DNA from: Alphaproteobacteria bacterium
Lineage (GTDB): Bacteria > Pseudomonadota > Alphaproteobacteria > GCA-2731375
Length of the DNA: 64,000 bases
Assembly (NCBI GenBank): GCA_030752605.1
Contig: JASMDX010000075.1
Coordinates: 17,086-81,085 of the forward strand
Direction of reading: 5' to 3'
Part shown: positions 17,849-58,768 of the stretch, one piece after another
Numbering within the stretch: position 1 is the stretch's first letter
Layout: the number at the start of each line of letters is the position of its first letter
Program-made: the position numbers and the translations under genes
Notes under the pieces: generated by a model
Told to the model about the DNA's origin: nothing
What the model saw: the letters and a program-made list of their open reading frames with translations, nothing else
Databases searched by the model: none

Positions 17849-17858
17849 CGCTCCGCCT

Positions 17859-18794
17859 TTACTCAGCCGCCGCTTCGACCCAAAGCCGGCCTTCTTGGCC
17901 ATGCAGGTAGCCATTGGCCAAGGGTACATCGCCGATGATCTCGTCCAGACGCGCCTCCGCTTCCTCCACCGCCATTGCATCGTCGAGTGCGCTGCGGAAC
18001 AGCGCGGCGACCTGCACCATGTCACAACTGTGCGGCCATAGCCGGAAGCTGTCGATCCCGGCGGCTTTCAACGCGGGCAGTTCAGCCAGCAGGCTGCAAT
18101 AGGTGTCGGACAGGGTCTGCGTGCCATTGATGGCCAGGAAAGGCTCGTCATCCAGGGTCTCGATGGTCAGGCCGTCGGGATCATTACCGCAAACGAATTG
18201 GCAGCCGTCCTTGTGCAGATCATGGGCCCGCGCGTGATAGCAGCGGGCCGAAATCGCCAGGGGCAGCCGGCCAAAAACCTGCACCTCCAGCGATACATCC
18301 TTGACGGCTTTGGTTTGGCCCAGGGCTTCGAGGGTGTCGAGCGAAAGCTCCGCCGGTAGCGAGATCCGATAGGCACCGCGCTTGGCCAGGTAGTTGATGG
18401 TGCCTCCGTTGTAGGCATTGACGAAAGGTCCGATAACGTGGCGCCGCCCGGCCAGCAGTGATGCGGTGGAAATATCATTGGCCTCGAAGGTCAGATCCGC
18501 GTCGACGGTGGTCTGTTTGATCTCATCCATCTCCTCCGCCGTCATGATCAACGCCAGGGTCGAGAGCACGACATCCTTGCCGGCCTTTTTCAGGCGCTCA
18601 TGCACCGCCGCGATATGCGGCAGGATAAATGGCCGCCGTTTGGCGCAAACAACCTCGCCCAGATAGACCGTTTCGATGTCCGCTTCGTCGGCGATGCGGA
18701 AATAGAAATCCCGCCAGCGTTCCGCATCCCAATGAAACAGCGTTGGTCCCAATGCCAGGCTGGTGGTTGATTTGGCCGCTTTCCGGTTTGTCAT
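17859..18794 (-). CDS. ubiV: U32-family peptidase-like protein UbiV
   Basis: …LALGPTLFHWDAERWRDFY…VYLGEVVCAKRR…VVLSTLALI… matches YhbV/UbiV. 4-nt ATGA overlap with ubiU. Confidence 0.8.
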   Translation of the reverse strand: MTNRKAAKSTTSLALGPTLFHWDAERWRDFYFRIADEADIETVYLGEVVCAKRRPFILPHIAAVHERLKKAGKDVVLSTLALIMTAEEMDEIKQTTVDADLTFEANDISTASLLAGRRHVIGPFVNAYNGGTINYLAKRGAYRISLPAELSLDTLEALGQTKAVKDVSLEVQVFGRLPLAISARCYHARAHDLHKDGCQFVCGNDPDGLTIETLDDEPFLAINGTQTLSDTYCSLLAELPALKAAGIDSFRLWPHSCDMVQVAALFRSALDDAMAVEEAEARLDEIIGDVPLANGYLHGQEGRLWVEAAAE

Positions 18795-19819
18795 CGCCAG
18801 GCCCTCCGATAGGCGCCGGAGGTTTCGCGCTGGCCCTCGGTCACATCCGCCAACTGGGGCATCTCGGGGATCGGCTCGCCCCGGCGGCAGGCGTCGATGG
18901 CGGCGCGGAAGGCCGCGACCACTTGTGCCGTGTAGGCGCGGCCGCGCTGCCGGCCCTCGATCTTCAAGGCGGAAACGCCGGCGGCCATCAACTCCGGCAA
19001 CAAGGGCAGGACGTTGAGGGAGGTCGGTGCCTCGAACAGGTACGAGGCGCGGCCGTCAGCCACGAAACGGCCCTTGCACAGGGTGGGATAACCGGCGGCG
19101 TCGCTTTGCTGAAAGATGTTGATGGTGAAATCGCCCAGTCGCGAGACCATCTCGGAGCCACGCTCCTCATAGCGGACATGGCTGGCGGGCGAACACACCC
19201 CGGTGATATTGGGTGACTTGCCGGTAACGTAGGACGACAGCAGGCACCGCCCCTCGGCCATGGGGCACATGCCGCCAAAGGCGAAAACTTCCGTCTCCAC
19301 CGGGATCTGGCTGTTCAACTCGGCGATATCCTCCACCGTCAGAACCCTGGGCAGGACCACGCGGCGTACGCCGAATGCCTCGTGATAAAAGCGGATCGCC
19401 TCGGCGTTCGAGGCCGAGGCCTGCACGGATAGATGCAGGCGCAAATCCGGGTGCTGCCTGGCCGCGTAGTCGAGGATGCCAATATCGGCCAGGATAACCG
19501 CGTCAACGCCTAGGTCGGCGGCGCAATCGATGGCGCGGTGCCAGGCCTCGGGCGCACCGGCGCGGGGAAAGGTGTTGATGGCGACAAAGACCATGCAGTA
19601 GCGCGCGTGGGCATATTCCAGGCCGTCCGCCAGTTCTTCCGGGCTGAAATTTAGGCCGGGGAAATTGCGCGCGTTGGTTTCGTCACGAAAGCCGAGATAG
19701 ACCGCTTCCGCCCCGGCATCGACGGCGGCCCGCAACGCCGCCGGCGTGCCCGCCGGGCAGATTAGTTCCAGATCACCCAAAATGGTTTCGGGTTTGGCTT
19801 TGGCACCGGTTGTGGCCAT
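18791..19819 (-). CDS. ubiU: U32-family peptidase-like Fe-S protein UbiU
   Basis: …LELICPAGTPAALRAAVDAGAEAVYLGFRDETNARNFPGLNFSPEE… …VFAFGGMCPMAEGRCLLSSY…GVCSPASHV…LCKGRF (4-Cys cluster). Strongly colinear with E. coli YhbU/UbiU. Confidence 0.85.
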   Translation of the reverse strand: MATTGAKAKPETILGDLELICPAGTPAALRAAVDAGAEAVYLGFRDETNARNFPGLNFSPEELADGLEYAHARYCMVFVAINTFPRAGAPEAWHRAIDCAADLGVDAVILADIGILDYAARQHPDLRLHLSVQASASNAEAIRFYHEAFGVRRVVLPRVLTVEDIAELNSQIPVETEVFAFGGMCPMAEGRCLLSSYVTGKSPNITGVCSPASHVRYEERGSEMVSRLGDFTINIFQQSDAAGYPTLCKGRFVADGRASYLFEAPTSLNVLPLLPELMAAGVSALKIEGRQRGRAYTAQVVAAFRAAIDACRRGEPIPEMPQLADVTEGQRETSGAYRRAWR

Positions 19820-19821
19820 GT

Positions 19822-20580
19822 TTATCCCTGTACCGCTGGTGTTTTCGAGGCGCGGCGGCGGCGTGATGAACCGCTCCGCGCCATGCTCTGGTGCAGATGA
19901 TCAACGGCGGCGGTTTGCGTCTCGATCCGTTCCATGGCGGGTTGCAACAGCGCATCCTGCAGCATGGCCATGTCGGCTCCGGCCCGGCGCGCCAATCGCA
20001 AGGCGACTTTGGCGGCCCGCCGCGCGGGCCGCGCCAAAGGGCCGGCCCGGACCAGGATATCGTCGATAATGTCGATTTCCTCGCCATCGACGGCGTTGCG
20101 CAGGGCTACCACGGCCTCCGTATCACCCTCGATCAACAGGCGGCGGGAAAAAAACAGCGCATCGCCGTCAACCCGGCCTTCCAGAAGATCGATCAGGGCC
20201 AGGAGAGAGCCGTGTATGGCCGCCGTGGCGCGGGACACATCAGCTTCGCGGGCAATGGTTAGCTTTGGTTGTTCGGCATCCGCTTTCAGCAGAAAGCGGA
20301 TCGGCAGATCGACGGGATCGATCAGGAATATCGTGTCGGCATGGCTGTCCAGGCGTTCAAACATTCCTGGATGCTGCTTGGTGACGGACGCCATCACGGC
20401 GCGCAGGAGGGGCCGCAGCACTACGTTGGGGATTGGTGCCAGCAACAAACCACCCAACAGCACTGGCGAAAAGGGCGGAACCATGCTTGCCCGGCCCGCG
20501 CTTATGGCGCCTTTGCCCCCTTGTTCAGGGCTATCCTGAGAGTCATTCAAAATATCGGTCATAGCGGTCAAATTTACCAT
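19822..20580 (-). CDS. ubiT: SCP2-domain protein UbiT (start uncertain)
   Basis: …LFFSRRLLIEGDTEAVVALRNAV… SCP2 signature as in YhbT/UbiT. Directly upstream of ubiU. Alternative starts at 20562 and 20484. Confidence 0.75.
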   Translation of the reverse strand: MVNLTAMTDILNDSQDSPEQGGKGAISAGRASMVPPFSPVLLGGLLLAPIPNVVLRPLLRAVMASVTKQHPGMFERLDSHADTIFLIDPVDLPIRFLLKADAEQPKLTIAREADVSRATAAIHGSLLALIDLLEGRVDGDALFFSRRLLIEGDTEAVVALRNAVDGEEIDIIDDILVRAGPLARPARRAAKVALRLARRAGADMAMLQDALLQPAMERIETQTAAVDHLHQSMARSGSSRRRRASKTPAVQG

Positions 20581-20674: not shown

Positions 20675-20706
20675 GCCCTATTTGAAGCGTGCCATCCGAT
20701 AGGGCG
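20675..20706 (-). terminator. putative intrinsic terminator (stem CGCCCTAT/ATAGGGCG followed by UAUUAUAU) at the 3' end of the seven-gene operon
   Basis: 8-9 bp inverted repeat overlapping the oxidoreductase stop codon. A U-rich tract follows on the minus strand. The loop is long (17 nt), so confidence is moderate. Confidence 0.35.
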
Positions 20707-21931
20707 TCAGATCCACATCGGTAGGTTCACCGGCGACCAGCGCGGCGGTAATGCGGCCAGTGTTTGGCGCCATGCCGAAACCGTAGTGGCTGTGGCCAAA
20801 GGCGGCAAACAGGTCACGCTGGCCCGGCACCGTGCCGATGCAGGGCAGGCTATCTGGGAACGATGGGCGGCTGCCCATCCATTCTACCGGGTCGTCGGTG
20901 TTGATGTCGGGGAACAGCCGTTTCGCCAGGCCCTTGAAAATTTCAGCCCGACGATAGTTAGGCGCGGCATCAAGGCCGGCGAATTCGGCGGTGCCGGCAC
21001 AGCGCACCCCGGCCAGCATGGAAGAGGCTACGAATTTGCTCTCCGTATCCATGATGGAATTATTAACCGTGATGCCCGGCTGTTGCAGGATCAGATGATA
21101 GCCGCGTTCGGCCTCCAGCGGCAGATTTAGGCCCGATTGCTCTAGCAGCGGCGCAAGCAGGCGTGCCGACCAGGCGCCGGCGGCGATGACCACTTTGTCG
21201 CTGGTAATTTCGCCATCATCCGTCTGCAGCCGCCAGCCACCGCTTTCTTGTGGCGCGATCCGGTTAACGCCGGTCTGCCTGAACACCGCTCCCATATCCT
21301 GGGCCTTGGCGACCAGGGCCTTGCCAACGCCACCGGGTGAAAGGGCACGGGCCTGCGACTTGATCAATACCGCCGCTTTGTAGCGGGGCGACAGCGCGGG
21401 TTCAAGCTCATGGAGTGCGCCATCGTCAACGACCTCCAACGGCACATCGCGGTCCAGGCGCAGTTGCCAGCCCAACTGCTTCAGGTCAATCTCGGCTGGA
21501 TCACGGTAGATATGAACGTAGAAACTATCGCTGATCAGATGCTCCGAACCGGTACCCTGCAAAAGCTGGCGGTAAAGTTCGATATTGGGCCGGTTCAAGG
21601 CTTTCATGGCGTCGGCGATTTGGGGTAACTCGGCGACATTGCCGGCGCGCAGGAATTTTATGGCCCAGGGCAGGAACGAGGGTAGATAAGGCCAACGCAG
21701 TGCGATAGGACCTTCGGGATCCAACAGCCAGCGCGGTACGCTGCGCCACAGCCCCGGCATGGACTGCGGCACGCAGGTCCAGGGCGACACCACCCCGGCG
21801 TTGCCGTGGCTGGCCCCCTCCGCCGGCGGATCACGGTCGACGACCTCGACCGCCAGGCCTTTTTCGCGCAGATATACGGCGGTACAGATGCCGACAATGC
21901 CGGCGCCTACGATCGTAACCTGCTTAGCCAT
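20678..21931 (-). CDS. FAD-dependent oxidoreductase (DadA/D-amino-acid dehydrogenase-like)
   Basis: MAKQVTIVGAGIVGICTAVYLREKGLAVEVVDRD Rossmann GxGxxG. 417 aa, DAO-family length. Confidence 0.75.
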   Translation of the reverse strand: MAKQVTIVGAGIVGICTAVYLREKGLAVEVVDRDPPAEGASHGNAGVVSPWTCVPQSMPGLWRSVPRWLLDPEGPIALRWPYLPSFLPWAIKFLRAGNVAELPQIADAMKALNRPNIELYRQLLQGTGSEHLISDSFYVHIYRDPAEIDLKQLGWQLRLDRDVPLEVVDDGALHELEPALSPRYKAAVLIKSQARALSPGGVGKALVAKAQDMGAVFRQTGVNRIAPQESGGWRLQTDDGEITSDKVVIAAGAWSARLLAPLLEQSGLNLPLEAERGYHLILQQPGITVNNSIMDTESKFVASSMLAGVRCAGTAEFAGLDAAPNYRRAEIFKGLAKRLFPDINTDDPVEWMGSRPSFPDSLPCIGTVPGQRDLFAAFGHSHYGFGMAPNTGRITAALVAGEPTDVDLTPYRMARFK

Positions 21932-21951
21932 CGGCGACCATCCCTATTCTC

Positions 21952-23526
21952 TTATATCGCGACTTCAATCAGATACGGTCCTTCGCTATGCAGGCCGCTA
22001 TCAAAGGCCGTGGCCAGTTCCTCCGCCGTGGTTACCCGCGATGCCTCCACGCCCATGCCCTTGGCCATTTGCACCCAATCCAGGTTGGGCCGGTCGATGG
22101 ACAGCATATCCACCGCACGGGGGCCGGGGTTGAGCACGCCCACATTTGTCAATTCGCCACGCAGGATATTGTAGGTGCCGTTGGCGAAGAGCAACACGGT
22201 GACATCGAGATTTTCCCGCGCCATGGTCCACAGGGATTGCACCGTGTACATACAACTCCCATCGCCTTCCAGGGCGATGACCTTGCGGTCCGGGCAGGCG
22301 ATGGCGGCGCCGACGGCGACAGGCAGGCCGTAGCCGATGGAGCCGCCCCGGTTGTTGATCCAGTCATGCGGTGGCGCGCCGGCGGTTGTGGGGAAGAATT
22401 CCCGCCCCGTGGTGACGCTTTCATCGACCACGATGGCGCCCTCGGGCACCATGGCGCCCAGCACGGCGGCAATAGCGGCGGGCGTGATCTCGCCCGTGGG
22501 CAGGGCCGGACGATGCGGTGCCGCAACGCCGGCGGGCTCCATATCCAGGCAGTCCAGTTCAATGGCCAAGGCTTCCAGGGCGGCTTCCATATCCTCATCC
22601 GTACCGGCCAACAACGTGGATTTGGCATCCGGGTCCACCAACAGAGAGGGCTTGTCGGGATATGCGAAAAAAGCAACCGGCTCCCGCGCGCCGACCATCA
22701 CCAGATCACCGGCTTTTTTCATGACTTCAAGCGCCAGTTCCACCACATAGGGCACGCGGTTGACCTGTACCCGGCCCGCACCCCTTTCCAGGCGGGTATT
22801 GGCGCCTTCGGTCAGGATGCCGCAACCGGTCTTGGCGGCGATCCGGCCCGCCAGGTTCAGGCTGCGCTCGCGCAGGGCTGCGCCGCCCATCAATAAAGTG
22901 GCATTATCGGAGGTGCGCAGCAGATCGGCGGCGGCCTTGACCGCATCGTCGGATACTTTGGGTGGCGCGCTGGGCGCCGTGGTTACGGCGACTTCGTCCG
23001 CCGGCCCCCAGGCGGTATCGGCGGGCAGGATCAGGGTGGCGATCTGTCCCGGTGTCTGGGTCGCCGCCTCGATCGCCAAGGCGCCGTCGCCGGCGATGGT
23101 CTTGGAGGTCGGCGATGTCTTGACCCAATGGGACATGGACGCTGCCGTGCCCTCGATGTCGGCGGTCAGGGGCGCATCGTACTTAATGTGATAGGTGGCA
23201 TGTTCGCCGACGATATTGACGACGGCGGAGTCCGCCTTCTTGGCGTTATGCAGGTTGGCCAAACCATTGGCCAGGCCGGGCGCCAAATGCAGCAGGGTCG
23301 ATGCCGGCTTGCCCAGCATGCGGTAATAGCCGTCGGCGGCGCCGGTCACCACGCCCTCGAACAGGCCCAGGACGCAACGCATGCCCGGTACCTTGTCCAG
23401 GGCGGCGACGAAATGCATCTCGGATGTACCCGGATTGGTGAAGCAGACCGTGACGCCGCCGTCGATCAGGGTGCGGACCAGGCTTTCGGCGCCATTCATT
23501 TCATCGGAATTTATCTCGTTACTCAT
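21952..23526 (-). CDS. thiamine-pyrophosphate enzyme, acetolactate-synthase-like (POX/ALS family)
   Basis: 524 aa. Pyr domain N-terminus. TPP motif …ALEGDGSCMYTVQSLWTMARENLDVTVLLFANGTYN (GDG-X24-N). Confidence 0.75.
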   Translation of the reverse strand: MSNEINSDEMNGAESLVRTLIDGGVTVCFTNPGTSEMHFVAALDKVPGMRCVLGLFEGVVTGAADGYYRMLGKPASTLLHLAPGLANGLANLHNAKKADSAVVNIVGEHATYHIKYDAPLTADIEGTAASMSHWVKTSPTSKTIAGDGALAIEAATQTPGQIATLILPADTAWGPADEVAVTTAPSAPPKVSDDAVKAAADLLRTSDNATLLMGGAALRERSLNLAGRIAAKTGCGILTEGANTRLERGAGRVQVNRVPYVVELALEVMKKAGDLVMVGAREPVAFFAYPDKPSLLVDPDAKSTLLAGTDEDMEAALEALAIELDCLDMEPAGVAAPHRPALPTGEITPAAIAAVLGAMVPEGAIVVDESVTTGREFFPTTAGAPPHDWINNRGGSIGYGLPVAVGAAIACPDRKVIALEGDGSCMYTVQSLWTMARENLDVTVLLFANGTYNILRGELTNVGVLNPGPRAVDMLSIDRPNLDWVQMAKGMGVEASRVTTAEELATAFDSGLHSEGPYLIEVAI

Positions 23527-23558
23527 TGGTAGATGTCTCCTAGATGCATATTCAGTTC

Positions 23559-25292
23559 TCAGCTGGCGCGCAGCCTGACCGTGGCGGCTTCGTCCACTGA
23601 CTTACCATCCCCGCTTAGCTTAACGCCATAAATCTCTTCGCCGGCCTGTAGGCTGACGACGCCGTCGCGGATATCGCGTAGCACCCGCCATGGCTCCCGC
23701 TGTTTCGGATCGCCCCAGCCACCGCCGCCTGGTGATGAGGCGCGCAGGGTCAGGGGGCCGAAATGGCGGACGGCGTACTTCGGTGGCGTTTCTCTACCGC
23801 CATGGGCAAACGATACTTCCATGTCGCCGGGCTGGCCCGCGGCCCCGCCCGCGGCCCCGAAGCAGGACGTGTTGTACAGTCCCTCGCCGCGAAAGGCGTA
23901 TTCGGCATCGACATTGATCTCAACCTCGAAATCGGCGCCGGTGCCGCCGCGATAGGCGCCGGAGCCGGCGGCATCGGTGCGGAATTCCTGCCGTTTGAAC
24001 AGCACGGGATAGAGTTGCTCGTATGTTTCCACATTGGGCAACACCAGGCCGCCCAGGGCGATCAGATGGCCGATCTGGTTGAAACCGTCGCGGCCTTCGA
24101 CGCCGCCGCCGCCAGGCGCGGAATTCCATTGATACATCACGAATGGGCTCTCTCCGCCTGTCCTGCCTGATGTGGTGCCATGTATGGCCTTGCCCCAACC
24201 GGCGCAGCTGCGTTCGGGCACCGCCTGGTTCAGGGTTTTCCAGATCACATGTACGATCTCGTGCGCGACGAAGACCGTGTTCATGGTCATGGCGGCGGGC
24301 GGTCTGGCATTGATGATGGTGCCTTCGGGCGCGATGATGGTCACCGTGCGGAAGGTGCCTTCGTTGCGTGGCAGATCCGGGTCGAAGTACGAGGCCAAGG
24401 CCATGTAGACAGCGGACCAGGTGTTGGCGACGGAGGAATTCTTGAAGCCTTTGACCTGTGGCGCGGTGCCGGTGAAATCAACCTCCAAGGCCTCACCCTT
24501 GACGCTCAGGCGCACCCGAATGGCATCATCAACAGGCTCAAAGCAGTCGTTGTCGATGGCTTCTTCGGCGTGGTAGTTGCCGTCGGGCATGGCGGCGACA
24601 CAGCGGCGGAAGCTGCGGTCGGCATGTTCCAGGATGCCTTCGAAATAGTCCCGGTATTGCGTCATGCCAAGCTCTTCCACTAGGGCGGCGATGCGGTCGG
24701 CGCCGATCTTGGTGGAGCCGATCATGGCCCGTAGATCGCCATCCAGGGCCTCCGCCGTGCGCGTGTTGATCATCACCAGGCGCCAGATGTCCTGGCGCGT
24801 CTCGCCCTTGGCGATCAGTTTCATCACCGGCAGGCGGATGCCTTCGTGAAAAATCTCACGGGCTTCGGAATTGTAGGTCCCCGCCGCGCCGCCGCCAATA
24901 TCGGCTTGGTGGGCCCGGTTGCAGGCAAAGGCAACCAACTCGCCGCCAACAAATACCGGCCGGGCGATAACCCAGTCGGGCAGATGGTTGCCGCCCGCCG
25001 TGTAGGGATCGTTCAACAAAAAGACATCGCCATCATCGATATCACCGGCGAAATCCCGCAACAGGGCGCGCACGGCGAAACCGCCACCTCCCGTATGGAT
25101 GGGAATGCCGTCGGCCTGGCTGACCAGGGTGCCGTCGGGATCGGCGATGAAGCAGGAGAAATCGTGGCTTTGCGAGAAAATCGGGCTGCGCGCGGTCCGC
25201 GTCATGACCCAGCCCATCTGCCGCGATATATGATCCAAACGGTTCTGCACCAGGGCCAGGACGATCGGATCGAGACTGTCTTGACTGTTCAT
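23559..25292 (-). CDS. hyuB: hydantoinase B/oxoprolinase family protein
   Basis: 577 aa. …LDPIVLALVQNRLDHISRQMG…FSCFIADPDGTLVSQA… typical HyuB. 1-bp gap to hyuA. Confidence 0.85.
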   Translation of the reverse strand: MNSQDSLDPIVLALVQNRLDHISRQMGWVMTRTARSPIFSQSHDFSCFIADPDGTLVSQADGIPIHTGGGGFAVRALLRDFAGDIDDGDVFLLNDPYTAGGNHLPDWVIARPVFVGGELVAFACNRAHQADIGGGAAGTYNSEAREIFHEGIRLPVMKLIAKGETRQDIWRLVMINTRTAEALDGDLRAMIGSTKIGADRIAALVEELGMTQYRDYFEGILEHADRSFRRCVAAMPDGNYHAEEAIDNDCFEPVDDAIRVRLSVKGEALEVDFTGTAPQVKGFKNSSVANTWSAVYMALASYFDPDLPRNEGTFRTVTIIAPEGTIINARPPAAMTMNTVFVAHEIVHVIWKTLNQAVPERSCAGWGKAIHGTTSGRTGGESPFVMYQWNSAPGGGGVEGRDGFNQIGHLIALGGLVLPNVETYEQLYPVLFKRQEFRTDAAGSGAYRGGTGADFEVEINVDAEYAFRGEGLYNTSCFGAAGGAAGQPGDMEVSFAHGGRETPPKYAVRHFGPLTLRASSPGGGGWGDPKQREPWRVLRDIRDGVVSLQAGEEIYGVKLSGDGKSVDEAATVRLRAS

Positions 25293-25293
25293 A

Positions 25294-27369
25294 TCAATTC
25301 TCCGCCCCGTCGATTTCGATCAGGAAATTATCCGCTGCGTCCACCGACAAGCGGTCTTTCGGTCCGACAAACACCGTCGTGGTCAGCTCCTCCACCAGCA
25401 GCGGGCCGTCCCGGCAAAAGCCTGGCCGCAGATCGGCGCCGGTATAGACAGGCGTCTCCTGCCAGCCATGCCTGCCGTCCGTAAAGACTTGGCGCAGCGC
25501 GGTGGGTTCGGGCCGTTTATCCGATGGCTCAGCTGATATCGGATCCGTGACATCGATCAAGCCACGTGCGGTGACACGCAGGGCGGTGATCTCGATGGTG
25601 CCGCCCGGCTGGGTGTGGCCGTACTGCCGTTGATGATCCGCATCGAAGGAAACTCGAACGGCGCCTGGGTCGAAGCTGTCATCGGACAAGGCGACGCGGA
25701 TCGACCACAACTGGCCGCGATAGCGTAAGTCCAATTCCCGCTGCACTATCGCCTTGTCGCCGCTGAATCCTTCGGCGGCCAGCGCGGCCTGCGCCCGATC
25801 AGCCAGGGGCTCGAAAGCCTGTTGCAAGGTGGTGCCGTCGACGCTGTCCAGATTGTCGAAATGCACGGCCAGATAATCCTGGCGAATGTCCGTGTGCAAC
25901 ATGCCCAGGGCGCAAAAGGCGCCCGCCTGGCGCGGCACATAAGCCTGGCCGCAGCCCAACGAGCGGGCCACGGAGGCGCCATGCATGGGCCCGGCGCCGC
26001 CAGCGGCTACCAGAGTGAAGCGGCGCGGATCGTGGCCCCGCTGGATCGAGATATGCTCCACCGCATGCAGCAGGTTCTGTTCCAACAGGCGGATGATGCC
26101 TGCTGCCGCTTCTTCGACCCGAATTCCCAAAGGGGCCGCGATCTTGCTCTCGATAGCCTGCCACGCCAGCTTGTCGTCCAAGGTCACGCTGCCGCCCGCA
26201 TAGGGACCGGGGCGCAGGCGGCCCAGAACCATATAGGCGTCGGTGACGGTTGGCTGATCGCCGCCCTGGCCATAACAGGCCGGGCCGGGCAGGGCACCCG
26301 CGCCCAGTGGGCCCACATGCAGCAAACCGGCCTCGTCCACATGGGCGATGGTGCCGCCGCCCGCACCCACGGTATGGATTTCCACCGAGGGCGTGGCCAG
26401 GTGATAGCCGTCGATGTTCAGCTCGTCCGTCACGCCGACCTGGCCTTCGCCCATCAGGGTAACATCGCAACTGGTGCCGCCGATCTCCATGGCGATCAGA
26501 TTGTTCGTGCTCGCCGCCCGGCTATAGAGGCCCAGGGCGCCGACGCCGGCGGCGGGACCCGAGAGCACCAGATTGACCGGCCGCTCCGAGACCTGTTCGA
26601 CGGACACCGCGCCGCCGTTGCTTTGCAGCAATAAAATCGGCCGGGCCAAGCCGTTATCGCGTAAATGGCTGTCCAGATCCCTTAGGTAACCGACCACATT
26701 CGGTGCGATGTAGGCATTGACCACGGTGGTCGAGGTGCGTTCGTACTCCCCCATGATCGGGGCGATGCGGCTGGATAGCGAGACCCAGGGAAATGCTTCC
26801 AGGTGTTTCGCCACCGCATCCTCGTGCGCCGGATTGCCATAGCTGTTCAGCAAGGCAACGGCGATGGCGTCCACCTCTTCCTCGGCAAAGACCGCCATCG
26901 CCGCATCAACGTCGCTCAATGCGATGGACGCCAGTTCGACACCGTTCTTGTCCAGGCGGCCAGCCACGGGTTGGCGGAGATAACGCGGCACCAAAACGTC
27001 GGGAAAAGGTGCGCGGTGATCCCACATGTTCTCCCGTATACCACGGCGTACTTCCAGGCTGTCGCGGAAGCCGGTGGTGGTCAGCAGGCCGACCTTGGCG
27101 CCTTTCTTTTCTAGAATGGTGTTCGTAGCGACGGTGGATCCATGAAAAAACAAAGCGCAATTGCCAAGTAAATCAGACAGTTCGATCGACAACTGGTCCG
27201 CCGCCCGCGCCAGCACCGACATGACACCCTGGCTGGGATCGGCGGGCACGGAGGGCGCCTTGAACACCCACAGGGAGCCGGTTTGATCGCGCAGCACCAT
27301 GTCCGTGAAGGTGCCGCCCACATCGACGCCGATGCGCCAAGGTGCTGCTGGTTGCGCGCCGCTCACCAC
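25294..27369 (-). CDS. hyuA: hydantoinase A/oxoprolinase family protein
   Basis: 691 aa. WRIGVDVGGTFTDMVL ATPase motif, …GGTSCDV… GTG start overlapping the upstream TGA (GTGA). Confidence 0.85.
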   Translation of the reverse strand: MVSGAQPAAPWRIGVDVGGTFTDMVLRDQTGSLWVFKAPSVPADPSQGVMSVLARAADQLSIELSDLLGNCALFFHGSTVATNTILEKKGAKVGLLTTTGFRDSLEVRRGIRENMWDHRAPFPDVLVPRYLRQPVAGRLDKNGVELASIALSDVDAAMAVFAEEEVDAIAVALLNSYGNPAHEDAVAKHLEAFPWVSLSSRIAPIMGEYERTSTTVVNAYIAPNVVGYLRDLDSHLRDNGLARPILLLQSNGGAVSVEQVSERPVNLVLSGPAAGVGALGLYSRAASTNNLIAMEIGGTSCDVTLMGEGQVGVTDELNIDGYHLATPSVEIHTVGAGGGTIAHVDEAGLLHVGPLGAGALPGPACYGQGGDQPTVTDAYMVLGRLRPGPYAGGSVTLDDKLAWQAIESKIAAPLGIRVEEAAAGIIRLLEQNLLHAVEHISIQRGHDPRRFTLVAAGGAGPMHGASVARSLGCGQAYVPRQAGAFCALGMLHTDIRQDYLAVHFDNLDSVDGTTLQQAFEPLADRAQAALAAEGFSGDKAIVQRELDLRYRGQLWSIRVALSDDSFDPGAVRVSFDADHQRQYGHTQPGGTIEITALRVTARGLIDVTDPISAEPSDKRPEPTALRQVFTDGRHGWQETPVYTGADLRPGFCRDGPLLVEELTTTVFVGPKDRLSVDAADNFLIEIDGAEN

Positions 27370-27767
27370 CGGGACGCCTTGTCTTGGATCGAAACGTGGG
27401 CCGCGACGACCTTCCAGCCCAGATCGGGAAACTTCACCCAGGTTTGCGATTGCCGGCCCACTTCGTCCTGACCGCGGACCTTGAATTCCAGGTTCACGGT
27501 GGCGAAACTGTCGCCCAGGGTGAGGATTTCCAGGCGACGGCGCACTTCCTTGATGCCGGGACCTGGCGCGCGCGAGGTTCGGTGTTTATGGATCTCGTCG
27601 AAACCATAGCCGTTTTCGTGCATGGCATAGCGAATTGTCTTGGTGCTGTCCCAAAAGGTGTTGTCCAGAACATTCACATCTTTGTCGATCAGGGCCTGTT
27701 CATATTCCTCGAACAGGGCAGTAATTTCCGCCACTACGTCCGGATCGTTTTCGACAAGTGTATTCAC
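27363..27767 (-). CDS. DUF3225 / NTF2-like protein (AtzH/HpxZ-like)
   Basis: ~134 aa from a GTG that overlaps the amidase TGA (GTGA). VNTLVENDPDVVAEITALFEEYEQALIDKDVNVLDNTFWDS… NTF2-like cone. The 183-aa ORF-track call is an over-extension into the amidase gene. Confidence 0.6.
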   Translation of the reverse strand: MNTLVENDPDVVAEITALFEEYEQALIDKDVNVLDNTFWDSTKTIRYAMHENGYGFDEIHKHRTSRAPGPGIKEVRRRLEILTLGDSFATVNLEFKVRGQDEVGRQSQTWVKFPDLGWKVVAAHVSIQDKASRW

Positions 27768-28942
27768 GCGGAATTCTCCATTGCTAGGGCTAGGGCAGTC
27801 AGTTGGGCGTCCGTGCCCCAGCGGCCAATGATCGACATGCCAACAGGCAGGCCATCGATAGTAGCGCCAGGGATCGATACTTGCGGTACCCCGGTCAGGC
27901 CGCCGTGAGTGCACAGACAGGCGATCTGCATGCGCAGAGGGTCGGTCTGGTTGATCGGCAGGCCCTTCATCGGTGCTGGAAATGGTGTCGTCGGAAGGCA
28001 GAGCACGGTGTTGGGCGGCAACAGATAATCCAGCCGGGTCCGAGCCTCCTGGCGCATCATGTTGGCCCAGTCGCGCTCGGCTTCGGGAATGGCGGCGGCG
28101 GTGGCTAGGCCGCGGGCGACGGAGTAAGCCATGGCCGGATTGGTTGTTTCCAGCCAGTCCTTGAAGGTCAGCCAGCCTTCATGGGATTGCAGGGTACGCT
28201 GCGCCCTGGCCCAGGTGCTCAGACCAGGCGGTGCCATGACCTCTTCTTCAATTGTTTCCACCAATTCGCCCAGGCGCTCGATAATGGGTAATAGGGCGGC
28301 ATGTAGCTTGCCGTCCGCGAAGCCGAAGGCATCCACCGCGACGATCAGGCGGTCCGGCAGTTCGGTTGGAATATCTTCCGCCAACATGACGGCGGATGCC
28401 CTGGCGAAGGTCTTGGCGTCGCGGGCGAACCAACCGGTCGTATCGGAACTGGGCGCTTGCGGCATCATACCGCCAAGCTCCAGCCGGCCATGGGTGGGGC
28501 GGATGCCGTATAGACCGCAGAAACTGGCTGGCACCCGAACCGAGCCGCCGGTATCCGTGCCCAGGGCGATGTCGCACATATCTGCGGCCACTGCCGCCGC
28601 CGAGCCGGCGGAGGAGCCACCCGGTACCCGGTCAGGCGCGGCACTGTTCACCGGCGTGCCATGAAAGACATTCTCGCCCAGGATGCCTAGGGAGACTTCA
28701 TCGGTAATCGCCTTGCCCACCAGATCGGCGCCGCCGTCCAGCAAAACCTGCACGGCCCAGGCGTGCCGCTTTGCCGGTTCATGGTTGCCCGGCCAGTCTG
28801 GATTGCCGCCGCCCGTGGGATGCCCAGCCACATCAAACAAATCCTTGGCCACGAAGGTCAGGCCCGATAGCGGCCCATTCGGTGCGCCTTCGATATGTAC
28901 CGACGAGCCTGGCACCAACGCGCCGACCGTGTCTTGCATCAT
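27764..28942 (-). CDS. amidase-signature family amidase (short form)
   Basis: …GGSSAGSAAAVAADMCDIALGTDTGGSVRVPASFCG… AS signature with the Ser-cisSer-Lys triad region. 392 aa. Start abuts the upstream stop with 0-bp gap. Confidence 0.8.
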   Translation of the reverse strand: MMQDTVGALVPGSSVHIEGAPNGPLSGLTFVAKDLFDVAGHPTGGGNPDWPGNHEPAKRHAWAVQVLLDGGADLVGKAITDEVSLGILGENVFHGTPVNSAAPDRVPGGSSAGSAAAVAADMCDIALGTDTGGSVRVPASFCGLYGIRPTHGRLELGGMMPQAPSSDTTGWFARDAKTFARASAVMLAEDIPTELPDRLIVAVDAFGFADGKLHAALLPIIERLGELVETIEEEVMAPPGLSTWARAQRTLQSHEGWLTFKDWLETTNPAMAYSVARGLATAAAIPEAERDWANMMRQEARTRLDYLLPPNTVLCLPTTPFPAPMKGLPINQTDPLRMQIACLCTHGGLTGVPQVSIPGATIDGLPVGMSIIGRWGTDAQLTALALAMENSA

Positions 28943-29956
28943 CTAGCCCTCCAACAATTCTTGCACCGCCGCGCGCACATGCGCCTCATCATCGGTGTTG
29001 TCGATAGGGTTGCCCGCGCGGTGGCCCCAGATGGATTCGATGGGCCGGAACTCAGCGTTCGGCATTTGCGTGCATTCGGCCTCGCTATCCTCGGGCGTGA
29101 AGTAGAGATCCGTGCGCGAGGGCATGATCATGGCGCGGGCCTCGATGGCGCCCAGGGCGGTGGCCAGATCGCCGTTATAAATCTCGTTGTCAGATATATC
29201 TGAATCGTACCAGACCGCCAGCATGGCAAGCAGATCATCGCCATTGCGGCGCAGGAAATTTGCCTCCCAGCCGCGCACCAGATAATCCTCCAACGAGGCG
29301 AAACCCAGCTCCAGGTGCTTTTCCTGACGATAGAAGGCTTGGCTCATGGCCCAACCGGCATACAAGCGCCCCATGGCGCGCAAGCCACGCACGGGCCGGG
29401 CGGTGAAGCCACTCTCCTGCCAGGCCGGATCGGCGGTCAAGGTGGCGCGCACACCTTCGAGGAAAACCTTGTTATGGGGCGTGGTACGTGCCGAGCCGCA
29501 GACGGCGCAAATGGCGTCTACTTGATCCGGGAAGATGGCGCCCCAATGCAGGGCTTGTTGGGCGCCCATTGACCAGCCATAGACGAGAGCCAGATGCTCG
29601 ATTCCAAAATTTTCTTTTAGCAAGCGGTTCTGGGCCTGCACGTTGTCCCAATGGCTGAAGCGGGGAAAGCGCCCCATGCCATAGGGTTCCGCGATGTTGG
29701 AGGGAGAGGAAGAGAGTCCGTTGCCGAACATGTTGGGGATGATGATGAAGTACTTTTCTGGATCCAGGATACCGCCCGGACGGATCAACCATTCGATATC
29801 GATATGCTGGGCGCCATACGAGGTGGGATAGAGCACCACGTTGGATTTATCCGCCGCCAGTTTGCCATAGGTTTGATAGGTCAATTGCGCATTGGTCAGG
29901 GTCATGCCCCGCTGTAGGCGCAGATTGTCCAACTCGAAAACCTTGTAATCGTCCAT
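28943..29956 (-). CDS. alpha/beta-hydrolase, homoserine O-acetyltransferase (MetX)-like
   Basis: 337 aa. …LALVYGWSMGAQQALHWG… nucleophile elbow in MetX-like context. First gene of the minus-strand operon. Confidence 0.65.
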   Translation of the reverse strand: MDDYKVFELDNLRLQRGMTLTNAQLTYQTYGKLAADKSNVVLYPTSYGAQHIDIEWLIRPGGILDPEKYFIIIPNMFGNGLSSSPSNIAEPYGMGRFPRFSHWDNVQAQNRLLKENFGIEHLALVYGWSMGAQQALHWGAIFPDQVDAICAVCGSARTTPHNKVFLEGVRATLTADPAWQESGFTARPVRGLRAMGRLYAGWAMSQAFYRQEKHLELGFASLEDYLVRGWEANFLRRNGDDLLAMLAVWYDSDISDNEIYNGDLATALGAIEARAMIMPSRTDLYFTPEDSEAECTQMPNAEFRPIESIWGHRAGNPIDNTDDEAHVRAAVQELLEG

Positions 29957-30050
29957 TTTTGTGCTCCCTCCACTGCTTATCCTATCGCCAGCGGGCGGAG
30001 TGGTCCAATATGATCGCCTGCAATTCGTATTTCAGAGGGCCCCGATTGCC

Positions 30051-31964
30051 ATGACCAAGCCAAAACCAGCATCGCCGACCACCCAGGCAGCGCAAAAGGC
30101 TGTGCTGGAAGCTCTGCCGTTTGAAGATCAATTCGATTTCGAGCAGGCTCAGCGCGGTTTTATTGCCGCCGTGCCCGATGGCCAGGTCACGAATGCGCGC
30201 GGCGCTGAACTTTGGGATTTGCAGGCGTACGATTTTCTGAACCAAGGCGAGGCGCCTGATACGGTCAATCCCAGCCTCTGGCGCATGGCACAATTGAACA
30301 TGAATAACGGCCTCTACAAGGTGTGTGAGCGGGTCTATCAGCTACGTGGCATCGATCTGGCCAATATGACGATCATTGAAGGCGACAGCGGCCTGATCAT
30401 CGTCGATCCCATGACCACGGCCGAGGTGGCAGGCGCTGGGTTGGATCTGTATCATGCCCATCGCCCGGAAAAACCGGTTGTCTGCGTGATCTACTCTCAC
30501 AGTCATGTGGATCACTATGGCGGCGCCATGGGTGTGGCCAGTGCCGAGGATGCCGCATCTGGCAAGGTCAGCGTGATCGCGCCGGATCAGTTTGTCGAGG
30601 AATTAAGCGGCGAAAATGTCATCGCCGGCAATGCCATGATGCGCCGGGCACAGTTCCAGTTCGGCGGTTTGTTGCGCAAGGGAGCGTGCGGCCAGGTTGA
30701 TGCCGGCCTGGGCAAGGTCACGGCGCGGGGTCGGGTGACCTTGATCTCGCCGACATTAGTGATAACCGAGCCAACGGAAACTCATGCCGTTGATGGCGTG
30801 GAGATAGTCTTTCAACTGGCCCCGGATTCAGAGGCGCCGGCGGAAATGCATATGTTCTTGCCGCAATTCGGTGTCTTGAATATGGCGGAGAACACCACGC
30901 GCCTGCTACACAACTTTATTCCCTTTCGAGGCTCGGTCGCGCGCGACCCGCGCATCTGGTCGCGGCATATCTCCGATGCGATCACGATGTTTGGTGACCG
31001 GACCGAAGTTCTGATCGGCCAGCATCACTGGCCCACATGGGGCCGGGACGAGGTTAGGGCCTATTTGGAAAAGCAGCGGGATCTGTACAAATATATTCAC
31101 GACCAGACAGTCCGTTTAATGAACCATGGCCTCAACCGTGAGGAAATCTCCGAGGAGCTGGACCTGCCTCCCGGTCTGGATCAGGAATGGTCCGTGCGCG
31201 GTTACTACGGCAGCGTCAGCCATAACGCCAAGGCTGTCTATCAGCGATATCTCAGCTGGTATGATGCCAACCCGGCCAATCTGAACCAGTTGCCCCGGCG
31301 CGAAGCCGGAAGAAAGATGGTCGAATATATGGGCGGCGCCGAGGCGCTGCTTTTTCGTGCTCAGGCGGATTTCGGGGTTGGGGAGTACCGTTGGGTGGCG
31401 CAAGTGTTGAGCCATCTGGTCTTTGCCGAGCCGGAAAATATGGCAGGGCGGCAACTATTGGCAGATACCTTTGAACAACTCGGTTATCAGGCGGAAAGTG
31501 CGACCTGGCGTAACGCCTATCTGTATGGCGCGCAGGAACTGCGCCACGGCTTGGCCAAACTGCCTCCGCGCCGGATGATCAGCCCGGACATGCTGACCGC
31601 GCTGAGCGGTGGGGCGCTGTTTGATTTCATGGCCGTGCGTCTGAATGGCGCCAAGGCCGCCGGCCTGCGCTGGCGGATCAACTGGCATTTGAGTGACATC
31701 GACGAACGCCTGATGATGAACCTGCAGAATTGCACCATGACGTACATGCCTGGCGAGGTGGCGGACGACGCGGCTGCGTCCGTGCGGGTCAGCCGCGAGG
31801 TGCTGGTGGCGGTAAACGTGCGTAAGACCAATGTGACAGAGGCCTTGGCCGCCGGCGAAATGGAAATCAAAGGTGATCCGGCGCTGGTCGTGCGGCTTTT
31901 CGAAATATTGGATGATTTTGATATGATGTTCGATGTCGTCGCACCCAGTCTGAAGGGAGAGTGA
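30051..31964 (+). CDS. alkyl/aryl-sulfatase, SdsA1-type (MBL fold + dimerisation + SCP2-like C-terminus)
   Basis: …VIYSHSHVDHYGGAMGV… HxHxDH metallo-beta-lactamase motif. ~640 aa, three-domain architecture. A longer start at 29961 is possible. Confidence 0.75.
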   Translation: MTKPKPASPTTQAAQKAVLEALPFEDQFDFEQAQRGFIAAVPDGQVTNARGAELWDLQAYDFLNQGEAPDTVNPSLWRMAQLNMNNGLYKVCERVYQLRGIDLANMTIIEGDSGLIIVDPMTTAEVAGAGLDLYHAHRPEKPVVCVIYSHSHVDHYGGAMGVASAEDAASGKVSVIAPDQFVEELSGENVIAGNAMMRRAQFQFGGLLRKGACGQVDAGLGKVTARGRVTLISPTLVITEPTETHAVDGVEIVFQLAPDSEAPAEMHMFLPQFGVLNMAENTTRLLHNFIPFRGSVARDPRIWSRHISDAITMFGDRTEVLIGQHHWPTWGRDEVRAYLEKQRDLYKYIHDQTVRLMNHGLNREEISEELDLPPGLDQEWSVRGYYGSVSHNAKAVYQRYLSWYDANPANLNQLPRREAGRKMVEYMGGAEALLFRAQADFGVGEYRWVAQVLSHLVFAEPENMAGRQLLADTFEQLGYQAESATWRNAYLYGAQELRHGLAKLPPRRMISPDMLTALSGGALFDFMAVRLNGAKAAGLRWRINWHLSDIDERLMMNLQNCTMTYMPGEVADDAAASVRVSREVLVAVNVRKTNVTEALAAGEMEIKGDPALVVRLFEILDDFDMMFDVVAPSLKGE

Positions 31965-31968
31965 AACT

Positions 31969-32943
31969 TTGACGGAAACAACGTACAGCATCGGTGTTAT
32001 CGGCCTCGGTATCATGGGGCGGCGGATGATCGCGAATGTGATCAAACATTTCCGCCTTGCTATCAGCGGCGCCTGGGATCCGGATTCCCGGGCCTGCGCG
32101 GACGCAGCGGCGGAAACGCCTGACCTGGCGATCATGGCGGATGCGGACGCGGTTATCGCGCGGGCGGATCTGATATACGTTGCCACGCCGCCTTTATGGC
32201 ACCGGGAATATGCGGACCGGGCCATGGTGGCCGAAAAGCCGCTCTATTGTGAAAAACCCCTGGGCATCGATGTGGAGAGCAGCCGCGATCTGGTGGCGAC
32301 CTTGGACAACAGCTATACGCCCAACGTAGTGAATTTCATCCAGGCATCATCTCGCGCCGTGACCTTGACCAAGGAGCGCGTCGACAACGGCGCCCTGGGT
32401 GAAATCATCGGCGTCGATATCATCGTACATTTTTCCCGCTGGCCTCGGGATTGGCAGGCAGACGCCGATTGGCTACGTTTTCGTGATCAGGGCGGCTATA
32501 CACGCGAGGTGTTGTCGCATTTTATCTTTGTCACCCAGCGTCTGTTGGGGCCGGCAGCCTTGATCACCTCCTGTCCGGTCTATCAGGATGATCCTGAATT
32601 GTGCGAGACGCATATTTCCGCCGTGCTCGATTGTGGTGGCGTGCCGATTTCGGTGTTGGGGACCAGCGGCGGGGCGGGACCCGACAGGGTGGAAATGACG
32701 GTCTGGGGCAGCGAGCGGAGTCACCGTTTGCATGATTGGTTCTTCCTTCAATCCAGCAACGGCGGTGACTGGATGCAGGAATTCCCAGAGGTCGAGGATC
32801 CGCGCGTTGAAAGTTTCGGCTTGCAATTGGACAATGTGGCGGCTTGGATGGACGGCGAACCCAATGTCCTAGCCAGTGCCGCCGATGCCCTGGGGGTGCA
32901 AGAACTGGTCGAGGCGATGTTGGGTGCTGAAATAGGCGAGTAG
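31969..32943 (+). CDS. Gfo/Idh/MocA family oxidoreductase
   Basis: TTG start with GAAGGGAGAG RBS. …YSIGVIGLGIMGRRM… NAD(P)-binding Rossmann. Confidence 0.65.
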   Translation: MTETTYSIGVIGLGIMGRRMIANVIKHFRLAISGAWDPDSRACADAAAETPDLAIMADADAVIARADLIYVATPPLWHREYADRAMVAEKPLYCEKPLGIDVESSRDLVATLDNSYTPNVVNFIQASSRAVTLTKERVDNGALGEIIGVDIIVHFSRWPRDWQADADWLRFRDQGGYTREVLSHFIFVTQRLLGPAALITSCPVYQDDPELCETHISAVLDCGGVPISVLGTSGGAGPDRVEMTVWGSERSHRLHDWFFLQSSNGGDWMQEFPEVEDPRVESFGLQLDNVAAWMDGEPNVLASAADALGVQELVEAMLGAEIGE

Positions 32944-48356: not shown

Positions 48357-48382
48357 TCTGGTTTGCAAGTGGTGTGGGAAAA

Positions 48383-55072: not shown

Positions 55073-55081
55073 TTTCGGCCC

Positions 55082-56338: not shown

Positions 56339-56435
56339 GTGGCTTGCTCGTTTATTGAAAACCCTGATTGGCGGGAGCACCTAGATCGGCGCCCCCGCAA
56401 CCATGATTCCATGCCCTGCCGGGTTCGGGCCGGGC

Positions 56436-57488: not shown

Positions 57489-57592
57489 CACTTGCCCCTT
57501 TCTCCCGTTGTCCACGAACACACTAAATGGTTCATGTCAGTTTTTGGTTCTTTATGGAAAATATTGTAACACTGCCCGAAAGAGTGCGTAAA

Positions 57593-58726: not shown

Positions 58727-58768
58727 TGAAGACCACGCCCGCGCCACGAGCAAATTCGGAGACAAGAA

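Follow-up and report, generated by a model that had tools for sequence, protein, structure and literature searches.

A conserved HyuAB–amidase operon of uncultured marine Alphaproteobacteria and its possible role in the breakdown of a cyclic amide

Introduction

What does an operon do when each of its genes belongs to a recognisable enzyme family, yet the combination matches no described pathway? This question is raised by a locus in a 64,000-nucleotide stretch of DNA from an Alphaproteobacteria bacterium (GenBank assembly GCA_030752605.1, contig JASMDX010000075.1, positions 17,086 to 81,085), which is referred to here as the window. Seven intact minus-strand open reading frames (ORFs) span 20678–29956 and encode, among others, the two subunits of a hydantoinase-type enzyme (HyuA and HyuB), an amidase with an AtzH-like partner, and a thiamine diphosphate (ThDP) enzyme. 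An earlier reading of the letters alone, the original prediction, had proposed that they form a translationally coupled catabolic operon for a cyclic amide or ureide. With limited confidence, we favour the view that these genes form a single transcription unit that degrades a small cyclic amide of the hydantoin/cyclic-ureide or lactam type. The operon is a new combination of known enzyme types and not a new kind of system.

Results

Seven tightly coupled genes on one strand

Gene families were assigned with Pfam and NCBIfam profiles, and the nearest solved chains were identified by comparison with the Protein Data Bank (PDB). In the order of transcription, the genes encode a MetX-like alpha/beta hydrolase (ABH) of the PRK07581 family, a putative esterase (gene 1, 28943–29956); a short amidase-signature (AS) amidase of 392 aa belonging to PRK08310 (gene 2, 27764–28942); an AtzH-like/HpxZ-like protein with an NTF2 fold (DUF3225, PF11533; gene 3, 27363–27767); HyuA, the ATP-binding subunit of a hydantoinase/oxoprolinase/lactamase-type enzyme (gene 4, 25294–27366); HyuB, the metal-binding catalytic subunit (gene 5, 23559–25292); a ThDP enzyme of the PRK07586 family, which resembles acetolactate synthase (ALS) and benzoylformate decarboxylase (BFDC) (gene 6, 21952–23526); and an FAD-dependent amine/amino-acid oxidoreductase of the DAO family (gene 7, 20678–21931). 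All seven proteins have intact catalytic motifs, with a Glu-for-Asp variant in one ATP motif of HyuA (see below). The true start of gene 3 is the GTG at 27767, as in its homologues, giving a protein of 134 aa instead of the 183 aa of the mechanical ORF.

The ABH and amidase genes abut (0 nt), and the next two junctions are 4-nt GTGA overlaps, in which the GTG start of the AtzH-like gene overlaps the amidase stop codon and HyuA in turn overlaps the AtzH-like gene. HyuA and HyuB are separated by 1 nt, HyuB and the ThDP gene by 32 nt, and the ThDP and DAO genes by 20 nt; every gene preceded by a gap has a purine-rich Shine–Dalgarno sequence. These gaps of 0–32 nt and the two overlaps indicate that the translational coupling is real. 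Promoter and terminator signals inside the operon did not exceed chance, and a single conserved promoter is predicted upstream. Thus, the same-strand layout described in the original prediction was confirmed by the ORFs and their junctions, and its seven family calls by the Pfam and NCBIfam matches.

HyuAB resembles hydrolases rather than carboxylases

HyuA contains the Hydant_A_N, Hydantoinase_A and Hydant_A_C domains (146, 293 and 38 bits, respectively), and HyuB contains Hydantoinase_B (502 bits). The closest solved chains of HyuA were the caprolactamase subunit CapA (6yra, 497 bits) and an N-methylhydantoinase (7hk5, 408 bits); HyuB matched 6yra_B at 291 bits and the N-methylhydantoinase at 234 bits. 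HyuA carries the phosphate 1 motif DVGGTFTD (residue 15) and the adenosine motif GALPGP (residue 357). In the phosphate 2 motif (residues 294–298), which reads EIGGT, Glu replaces the Asp of CapA (DMGGT, D295); the D295A mutation lowers CapA activity. The form E-[IV]-GGT is invariant in the marine clade described below and in every relative with an identity of 50% or more (loci L018, L030–L037, L109 and L111 of our survey), whereas CapA, like HyuA proteins that are more distant, has D-x-GGT. Judging from this distribution, the Glu variant marks a HyuA subfamily, which includes members on Rhizobiaceae plasmids. In HyuB, the CapB metal ligands D41, H99, D101 and H124 are kept (SHDFS, NHLPD and RAH in the alignment with 6yra_B).

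A ketone-carboxylase reading of HyuAB was rejected, because there is no gene for a third (gamma) subunit, for which the gaps of 0–32 nt leave no space, and the similarity to carboxylases is far lower. Acetone carboxylase matched in the PDB at 242 bits (HyuA) and 57 bits (HyuB), and the carboxylase equivalogs scored 293, 201 and 142 bits, where 1250–1500 would be required. HyuB, at 577 aa, has the size of a hydrolase; the alpha chain of acetone carboxylase (5m45_A) has 776 aa. By size and similarity, HyuAB is a hydrolase-type rather than a carboxylase-type enzyme.

Comparison with CapAB of Pseudomonas jessenii (6yra) showed that the window proteins keep the phosphate 1 and adenosine motifs as well as the metal ligands of the beta subunit. 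In addition, relatives of the window HyuAB (L018 and the Rhizobiaceae plasmids) adjoin class-III aminotransferase genes, an association that capAB has functionally. By contrast, the caprolactamase models NF050156 and NF050157, although they are the best NCBIfam matches of HyuA and HyuB, gave only 600 and 360 bits, with the cut-off at 1000. Moreover, the window operon has no aminotransferase gene, its HyuA has Glu in phosphate 2, and nothing in the caprolactam pathway corresponds to the amidase/AtzH-like pair.

A second comparison concerns hyuABC of Pseudomonas sp. NS671, which encodes an ATP-dependent hydantoinase, HyuAB, and an N-carbamoyl-amino-acid amidohydrolase, HyuC (PMC8453981). In the window, a two-subunit HyuA/HyuB likewise lies beside a potential carbamoyl-removing enzyme. 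Decarbamoylation would, however, fall to an AS amidase with an AtzH-like decarboxylase in place of HyuC, and the window core, unlike hyuABC, also includes a ThDP enzyme and a MetX-like hydrolase. The two HyuAB enzymes are distant from each other; the NS671 proteins are about 31–32% identical to CapAB, the nearest solved relative of the window proteins.

An AS amidase paired with an AtzH-like protein

The amidase matched PF01425 at 201 bits and PRK08310 at 439.8 bits, above the cut-off of 391. Its catalytic triad is intact, with K33 (in FVAKD), GGSSAG at 108–113 and GTDTGGS134. The AtzH-like protein matched PF11533 at 145 bits and marginally passed the HpxZ equivalog (136.2 bits versus 135). 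It shares about 45% identity with AtzH (6bjt), and the other close solved chain is 2rcd. The catalytic residues Tyr22 and Arg46, together with Arg63, Arg66, Gln106 and Gln108, are invariant; in the pocket, Arg96 of AtzH is replaced by Val and Arg73 by Lys.

AtzE and AtzH process carboxybiuret in two steps, in which hydrolysis of the amide yields an unstable N-carboxy compound that is then decarboxylated (PMC6219798). The original prediction had assigned the window pair to the AtzE/AtzH and HpxY/HpxZ architecture. As in AtzE–AtzG–AtzH and HpxXYZ, an AS amidase gene is followed by a DUF3225/AtzH-like gene, and a logic of hydrolysis and decarboxylation is implied. Beyond this likeness, the assignment failed. 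The amidase belongs to PRK08310, has an N terminus about 60 residues shorter than that of AtzE, and scored far below the AtzE cut-offs (184 bits versus 461 for NF006631, and 178.9 versus 425.75 for TIGR02715). The small GatC-like AtzG/HpxX gene is absent upstream of the amidase: the amidase ATG follows immediately after the ABH stop codon, leaving no room for such an ORF. The pathway partners AtzD/AtzF and the oxamate amidohydrolase HpxW were not present among the window ORFs scanned, which were those of 200 aa or longer. On the sequence evidence, the pair resembles AtzE/AtzH in logic and is not a member of that module.

Documented AS amidases that act on ureido groups include AtzE, allophanate hydrolase and AguY. 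AguY is a noncanonical AS N-carbamoylputrescine amidohydrolase of agmatine/putrescine metabolism, in which it acts alongside AguA (PMC12283126). The principle that the window amidase would share with AguY is replacement of a canonical carbamoylase by an AS amidase on a ureido substrate, but the two are not close relatives: no AguY/Tse8 chain was among the PDB matches of the window amidase at E <= 1e-20.

The alpha/beta hydrolase, the ThDP enzyme and the oxidoreductase

Gene 1 matched Abhydrolase_1 in Pfam and passed the NCBIfam model PRK07581 (502 bits versus a cut-off of 332), which represents an uncharacterised family. It has a GWSMG nucleophile elbow and remained below the MetX equivalogs TIGR01392 (129.5 bits versus 500) and NF001209 (124 versus 331). 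The closest solved chains were 5d6o and 5e4y, at about 200 bits each, which we take to be CgHle and MekB, acetyl-ester hydrolases homologous to homoserine O-acetyltransferase. If so, these enzymes and gene 1 have in common a MetX-like fold that fails the MetX equivalog models; gene 1 differs from them in lying in a HyuAB operon with no adjoining Baeyer–Villiger monooxygenase gene. Based on these similarities, gene 1 is probably an esterase.

The ThDP enzyme matched TPP_enzyme_N and TPP_enzyme_C and contains the GDG(421–423)-X25-N motif; the middle domain, TPP_enzyme_M, was not matched in Pfam. Its score for PRK07586 was 768.7 bits against a cut-off of 363, and the name ‘acetolactate synthase’ of that family derives from homology. 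The equivalogs for ALS (TIGR00118, 116 bits versus 538), BFDC (200 versus 493), AruI-type enzymes (108 versus 500) and Xsc (78.5 versus 620) were not reached, and the closest solved chains were benzoylformate decarboxylases (144 bits). Similarly, the DAO protein matched the general family PF01266 (207 bits) only, with lower scores than required for DadA (PRK00711, 186 bits versus 383) and ThiO (119.5 versus 250.8). Its top PDB match was glycine oxidase, at 75 bits.

Two known routes join enzymes of these types. In agropinic-acid catabolism on octopine-type Ti plasmids, a HyuAB-type lactamase (agaFG) is followed by a DAO-family oxidoreductase (agaE). In the D-arginine route of P. aeruginosa, DauA, a DAO-family dehydrogenase, is followed by AruI, an ALS-like ThDP 2-oxo-acid decarboxylase, and then by the aldehyde dehydrogenase KauB. 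Their likeness to the window operon is an analogy of logic, and there is no orthology at the sequence level.

These scores bear on whether the operon is a divergent version of a known pathway: creatinine/N-methylhydantoin, caprolactam, cyanuric acid/AtzEGH or oxalurate/HpxXYZ. Such an origin would agree with the caprolactamase subunits being the top NCBIfam matches of HyuA and HyuB, and with the AtzH-like protein just passing the HpxZ cut-off. However, the caprolactamase scores (600/360 bits versus 1000) and the AtzE scores (184/179 versus 461/426) fall far short, and the operon lacks AtzG/HpxX, AtzD/F, HpxW, a creatinine deaminase, an isochorismatase-type N-carbamoylsarcosine amidase and an omega-aminotransferase. 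Neither in the operon nor in its flanks was there a domain of N-carbamoylsarcosine amidase (isochorismatase fold) or of creatinine/cytosine deaminase. Because the equivalog cut-offs were not reached, none of these four routes is matched, and we consider this explanation largely refuted and extremely unlikely. The original prediction was right that the locus fits no characterised pathway: among the characterised equivalogs, caprolactamase, AtzE, MetX, ALS, BFDC and DadA were all missed, and only HpxZ was reached, marginally.

Conservation of a six-gene core in marine relatives

A genome scan with HyuA identified 19 loci, all of them in metagenome-assembled genomes (MAGs) of uncultured marine Rhodospirillaceae/Alphaproteobacteria; the record names of the related MAGs indicate oxygen-deficient and deep waters. 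The order ABH–amidase–AtzH–HyuA–HyuB–ThDP is whole in 12 loci and is cut by contig ends in three further MAGs. Relative to the window, every gene has a dS of 0.5–2.3, near saturation, and a dN/dS of about 0.03–0.14, that is, purifying selection. The AtzH-like protein is 84–91% identical among the relatives, comparable with the neighbouring genes. The flanks are rearranged between species. Conservation of the order despite near-saturated dS and reshuffled flanks indicates that the core is maintained by selection and not by mere inheritance. The conserved unit consists of six genes and excludes DAO, which lies beside the ThDP gene only in the window and its five closest relatives (L004–L008). 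The seven-gene unit of the original prediction thus stands as seven ORFs in the window, whereas the core shared among species has six.

Around this core, the gene content varies. Between the control region (described below) and ABH, L010 has an aldehyde dehydrogenase gene and L011 a hybrid sensor kinase gene. In L009 (5700–6870), L013 (13050–14240) and L017 (13823–14971), a gene of PF00144 (the beta-lactamase/esterase/aminopeptidase family) separates hyuB from the ThDP gene. L014 and L015 have ABH–HyuA–HyuB–ThDP without the amidase pair, and a short-chain dehydrogenase/reductase (SDR) gene after the ThDP gene. In L018, whose HyuA is 71% identical to that of the window, HyuAB stands alone beside a class-III aminotransferase. 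The aldehyde dehydrogenase, SDR, PF00144 and aminotransferase genes of the relatives fit amine, 2-oxo-acid and aldehyde chemistry.

Such variation could also be expected of a mosaic operon, in which the genes are co-transcribed but HyuAB, the amidase pair, the esterase and the ThDP enzyme have independent roles and no common substrate. In line with a mosaic, each of the four modules is found independently elsewhere (see below), L014 and L015 have lost the amidase pair and retained the rest, and insertions are tolerated (the sensor kinase of L011 and the PF00144 genes of L009, L013 and L017). On the other hand, the order and the tight coupling, including the amidase/AtzH/HyuA overlaps, are kept in about 15 species despite near-saturated dS and reshuffled flanks, and the chemistry of the parts chains without gaps. 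We therefore regard a mosaic as distinctly unlikely.

The modules occur separately outside the marine clade

Protein searches, neighbourhood look-ups, scans of genomes and metagenomes, and a plasmid collection did not reveal the full cluster outside the marine clade. Conservation of the gene neighbourhood, which the original prediction had named as a check, thus extends to the six-gene core in about 15 diverged MAGs whose flanks are rearranged, but dissolves beyond them. Searches of the literature on AtzH/HpxZ/DUF3225, hydantoinases, MekB/CgHle and agropinic acid gave no account of this gene combination; a mention of DUF3225 in PMC5699537 concerns DpdD and proved irrelevant.

The amidase family is huge, with about 8000 matches scored, mostly at about 70% identity. 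Without HyuAB, the amidase occurs in a soil-metagenome contig, in SAR324 and in an Acetobacteraceae MAG (69–70% identity), as well as on a Pseudoroseomonas plasmid (52%). In these loci it forms a stand-alone two-gene unit with an NTF2-fold partner (L001 10001–11606; L002/L003 9566–11841; L110 7001–8594; L113 1861–3430). The partner is AtzH-like in three of the four and an SnoaL/DUF4440 NTF2-like protein in the Acetobacteraceae MAG. In two cases, the pair adjoins a UPRTase-family gene. The amidase partner is called ‘HpxZ’ by PGAP, by homology only.

The other modules also occur singly. ABH alone, at 70–74% identity, was found in Paracoccaceae, Blastomonas and another marine MAG, in neighbourhoods that include def-fmt-truA. 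The ThDP enzyme alone, at 77–80% identity, was found in a Hyphomicrobiaceae MAG and two unclassified metagenome contigs (L026–L028), in unrelated neighbourhoods that include ribosomal-protein genes. Identity of 77–80% is unusually strong for an uncharacterised ‘acetolactate synthase-like’ protein. The two Rhizobiaceae accessory plasmids examined, from Sinorhizobium and Agrobacterium (L109 7544–16271; L111 7499–16098), share a conserved cluster that comprises genes for a class-III aminotransferase, HyuA and HyuB (the former 53% identical to that of the window), an NTF2-family protein, a GMC oxidoreductase and an FAH-family hydrolase. This plasmid cluster appears uncharacterised. Its NTF2 protein was considered as an AtzH-like protein and rejected, being unrelated to AtzH.

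Dispersal of this kind raises the alternative of housekeeping or metabolite-damage control, in which the enzymes would clear endogenous by-products such as spontaneously formed lactams of the 5-oxoproline type, carbamoylated or N-carboxylated metabolites and stray esters, and their genes would merely be gathered under one promoter. Modules that are 70–80% identical across orders and even phyla are consistent with such a role, as are the single genes in non-catabolic contexts (ribosomal-protein genes, def-fmt-truA and UPRTase), an operon with neither transporter nor dedicated regulator, and a compact sigma-70-like promoter. By contrast, the accessory genes (aldehyde dehydrogenase, SDR, PF00144 and DAO) vary by species, as they do in catabolic clusters; a sulfatase/oxygenase cluster and a MocR regulator are encoded divergently from the operon; and the HyuAB subfamily occurs on the Rhizobiaceae accessory plasmids in clusters that are clearly catabolic. 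Taken together, these observations make damage control unlikely.

A candidate route for cyclic amide breakdown

From the enzyme families, we infer the catalytic steps, their order and a class of substrate. HyuA/HyuB would open the ring of a cyclic amide, spending ATP. If the product is an N-carbamoyl (ureido) compound, the AS amidase would free its terminal NH2 as ammonia, yielding an N-carboxy intermediate, and the coupled AtzH-like protein would decarboxylate this intermediate, so that the pair would do the classical job of an N-carbamoylase. The amino acid or amine thus freed would be oxidised, by the DAO flavoenzyme in the window lineage and by other enzymes elsewhere. The ThDP enzyme would then decarboxylate or cleave the resulting 2-oxo acid to give an aldehyde, which the aldehyde dehydrogenase or SDR of the variant loci would handle. 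The MetX-like hydrolase would strip an ester group, probably an acyl group, from the substrate or from an intermediate. The class-III aminotransferases beside related HyuAB genes suggest a free amine on the ring-opened product.

In its most specific form, this route would be an undescribed mineralisation of natural cyclic ureides or hydantoins in alphaproteobacteria of the dark ocean and oxygen-minimum zones, in which HyuAB acts with a two-protein carbamoylase (the PRK08310 amidase plus the AtzH-like protein), and the ThDP enzyme and esterase finish the carbon skeleton. We regard this specific form as conceivable but doubtful.

Several findings weigh against a dedicated cyclic-amide pathway. 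HyuAB is about equally close to lactamase and hydantoinase, and a plain lactam substrate would leave the amidase/AtzH-like pair without an obvious role. L014 and L015 lack that pair, indicating that the core can do without decarbamoylation. No transporter is encoded in the operon, and the nearest regulator, of the MocR type, lies beyond the divergent sulfatase genes. HyuAB relatives at 50–64% identity have no other operon genes nearby. The cluster is confined to one uncultured marine alphaproteobacterial clade, and its modules are unlinked elsewhere, which lowers confidence in a single dedicated catabolic pathway. The logic of ring opening, deamidation and decarboxylation put forward in the original prediction stays plausible, given the conserved AtzH residues and the AguY precedent, but it is weakened by the dispersed modules, by the accessory status of DAO and by failure of the AtzE/AtzH analogy on two defining features. 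For these reasons, we regard the earlier interpretation as plausible, unproven and weaker than stated.

If the proposed breakdown of a cyclic ureide is true, the stand-alone pair of amidase and AtzH-like protein would gain a function as a general ureido-group amidohydrolase. The hydantoinase/carbamoylase problem would have a new answer, with an AS amidase and an AtzH-like decarboxylase replacing the carbamoylase. The operon would also provide the first functional context for PRK07581, for PRK08310 with its AtzH-like partner and for PRK07586, which are large, conserved and uncharacterised alphaproteobacterial families, and it would suggest that uncultured pelagic Alphaproteobacteria make use of a nitrogen-rich heterocycle. 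Should the model prove wrong, the locus would be another clade-specific operon assembled from known enzyme families.

A control region shared with divergent sulfatase genes

Upstream of ABH, a control region of 94 bp (29957–30050) is shared with genes on the plus strand, and two overlapping, divergent sigma-70-like promoters are predicted in it. The operon promoter (minus strand) has the -35 element TTGGAC (30008–30003), an 18-nt spacer and the -10 element TAGGAT (29984–29979), with the ribosome-binding site GGAGGGAG; the sulfatase promoter (plus strand) reads TCGCCA (29985–29990), N18 and TATGAT (30009–30014). The -35 element of each promoter abuts the -10 element of the opposite one. A 13-nt motif, ATCATRTTGGACC, is kept in 11 loci (L004, L006–L008, L010, L011, L013–L015, L017 and L020); it is a single site, with no second copy within the window. 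A riboswitch or other upstream RNA element was considered and rejected, since there was no Rfam match; neither Rfam families nor tRNAs were found in the whole window.

The plus-strand genes, assigned by Pfam, encode an alkyl sulfatase of the MBL/SdsA1 type (30051–31964, with its start ATG at 30051), a GFO/MocA oxidoreductase (31969–32943), a TauD-family dioxygenase (32949–34013) and a MocR-type regulator (34572–36086). Judged by eye, the N-terminus of the sulfatase is unlike a signal peptide. The sulfatase gene adjoins ABH in nine related loci and in a JGI contig, L011 has one gene between the two, and in L012, L016 and L021 the sulfatase gene is not beside the operon. In L010 (1706–3579) and L017 (2481–4342), genes for the alpha and beta subunits of a Rieske oxygenase lie between the TauD and GFO genes.

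This arrangement suggests another explanation, in which the operon and the divergent genes form a joint system: the sulfatase and esterase would strip the masking groups from a sulfated or esterified compound, the oxidoreductases would make a carbonyl, and HyuAB would open the product or, in the extreme version, carboxylate it. The common, conserved control region with its overlapping promoters, the frequent adjacency of the sulfatase gene and the Rieske oxygenase genes on the sulfatase side in L010 and L017 would agree with a joint system, and the nearest solved relatives of the esterase presumably include MekB, from a ketone pathway. However, the sulfatase gene is absent beside the operon in L012, L016 and L021, and the carboxylase version is at odds with the missing gamma subunit, the hydrolase-sized HyuB and the far lower similarity to carboxylases. 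Overall, we consider a joint system very unlikely.

The 3′ end of the operon and neighbouring genes

At the 3′ end of the operon, the original prediction had placed a terminator composed of a hairpin and a U-tract. A hairpin is present at 20675–20706 (minus strand), with an 8-bp stem over the last codons and stop codon of DAO, and may serve as a weak terminator. Its free energy is -15.5 kcal/mol (z = -1.8), and 12 of 200 shuffled sequences were equally stable. The sequence after the hairpin, UAUUAUAU, is AU-rich but has no U-tract. The hairpin is only partly conserved in the relatives and its tail is not conserved. A terminator scan of the region gave 7 sites, versus 8.1 expected from shuffled sequence. 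With this modest, poorly conserved hairpin and no U-tract, a strong intrinsic terminator 3′ of DAO is not supported.

Directly downstream on the minus strand lies an unrelated cluster (16334–20580) of ubiT (SCP2), ubiU, ubiV (peptidase U32) and ubiD, the set for oxygen-independent ubiquinone biosynthesis. This set fits an origin in oxygen-minimum zones, as indicated by the names of the related MAGs. Elsewhere in the window, the segments 48374–49687, 50476–51777 and 54245–60172 encode a PreA-like protein of the dihydroorotate/dihydropyrimidine-dehydrogenase type (4Fe-4S), a class-III aminotransferase, and an ABC transporter beside a second AS amidase, which is full-length (467 aa). The PreA-like protein, aminotransferase, transporter and second amidase may serve further organic-nitrogen catabolism.

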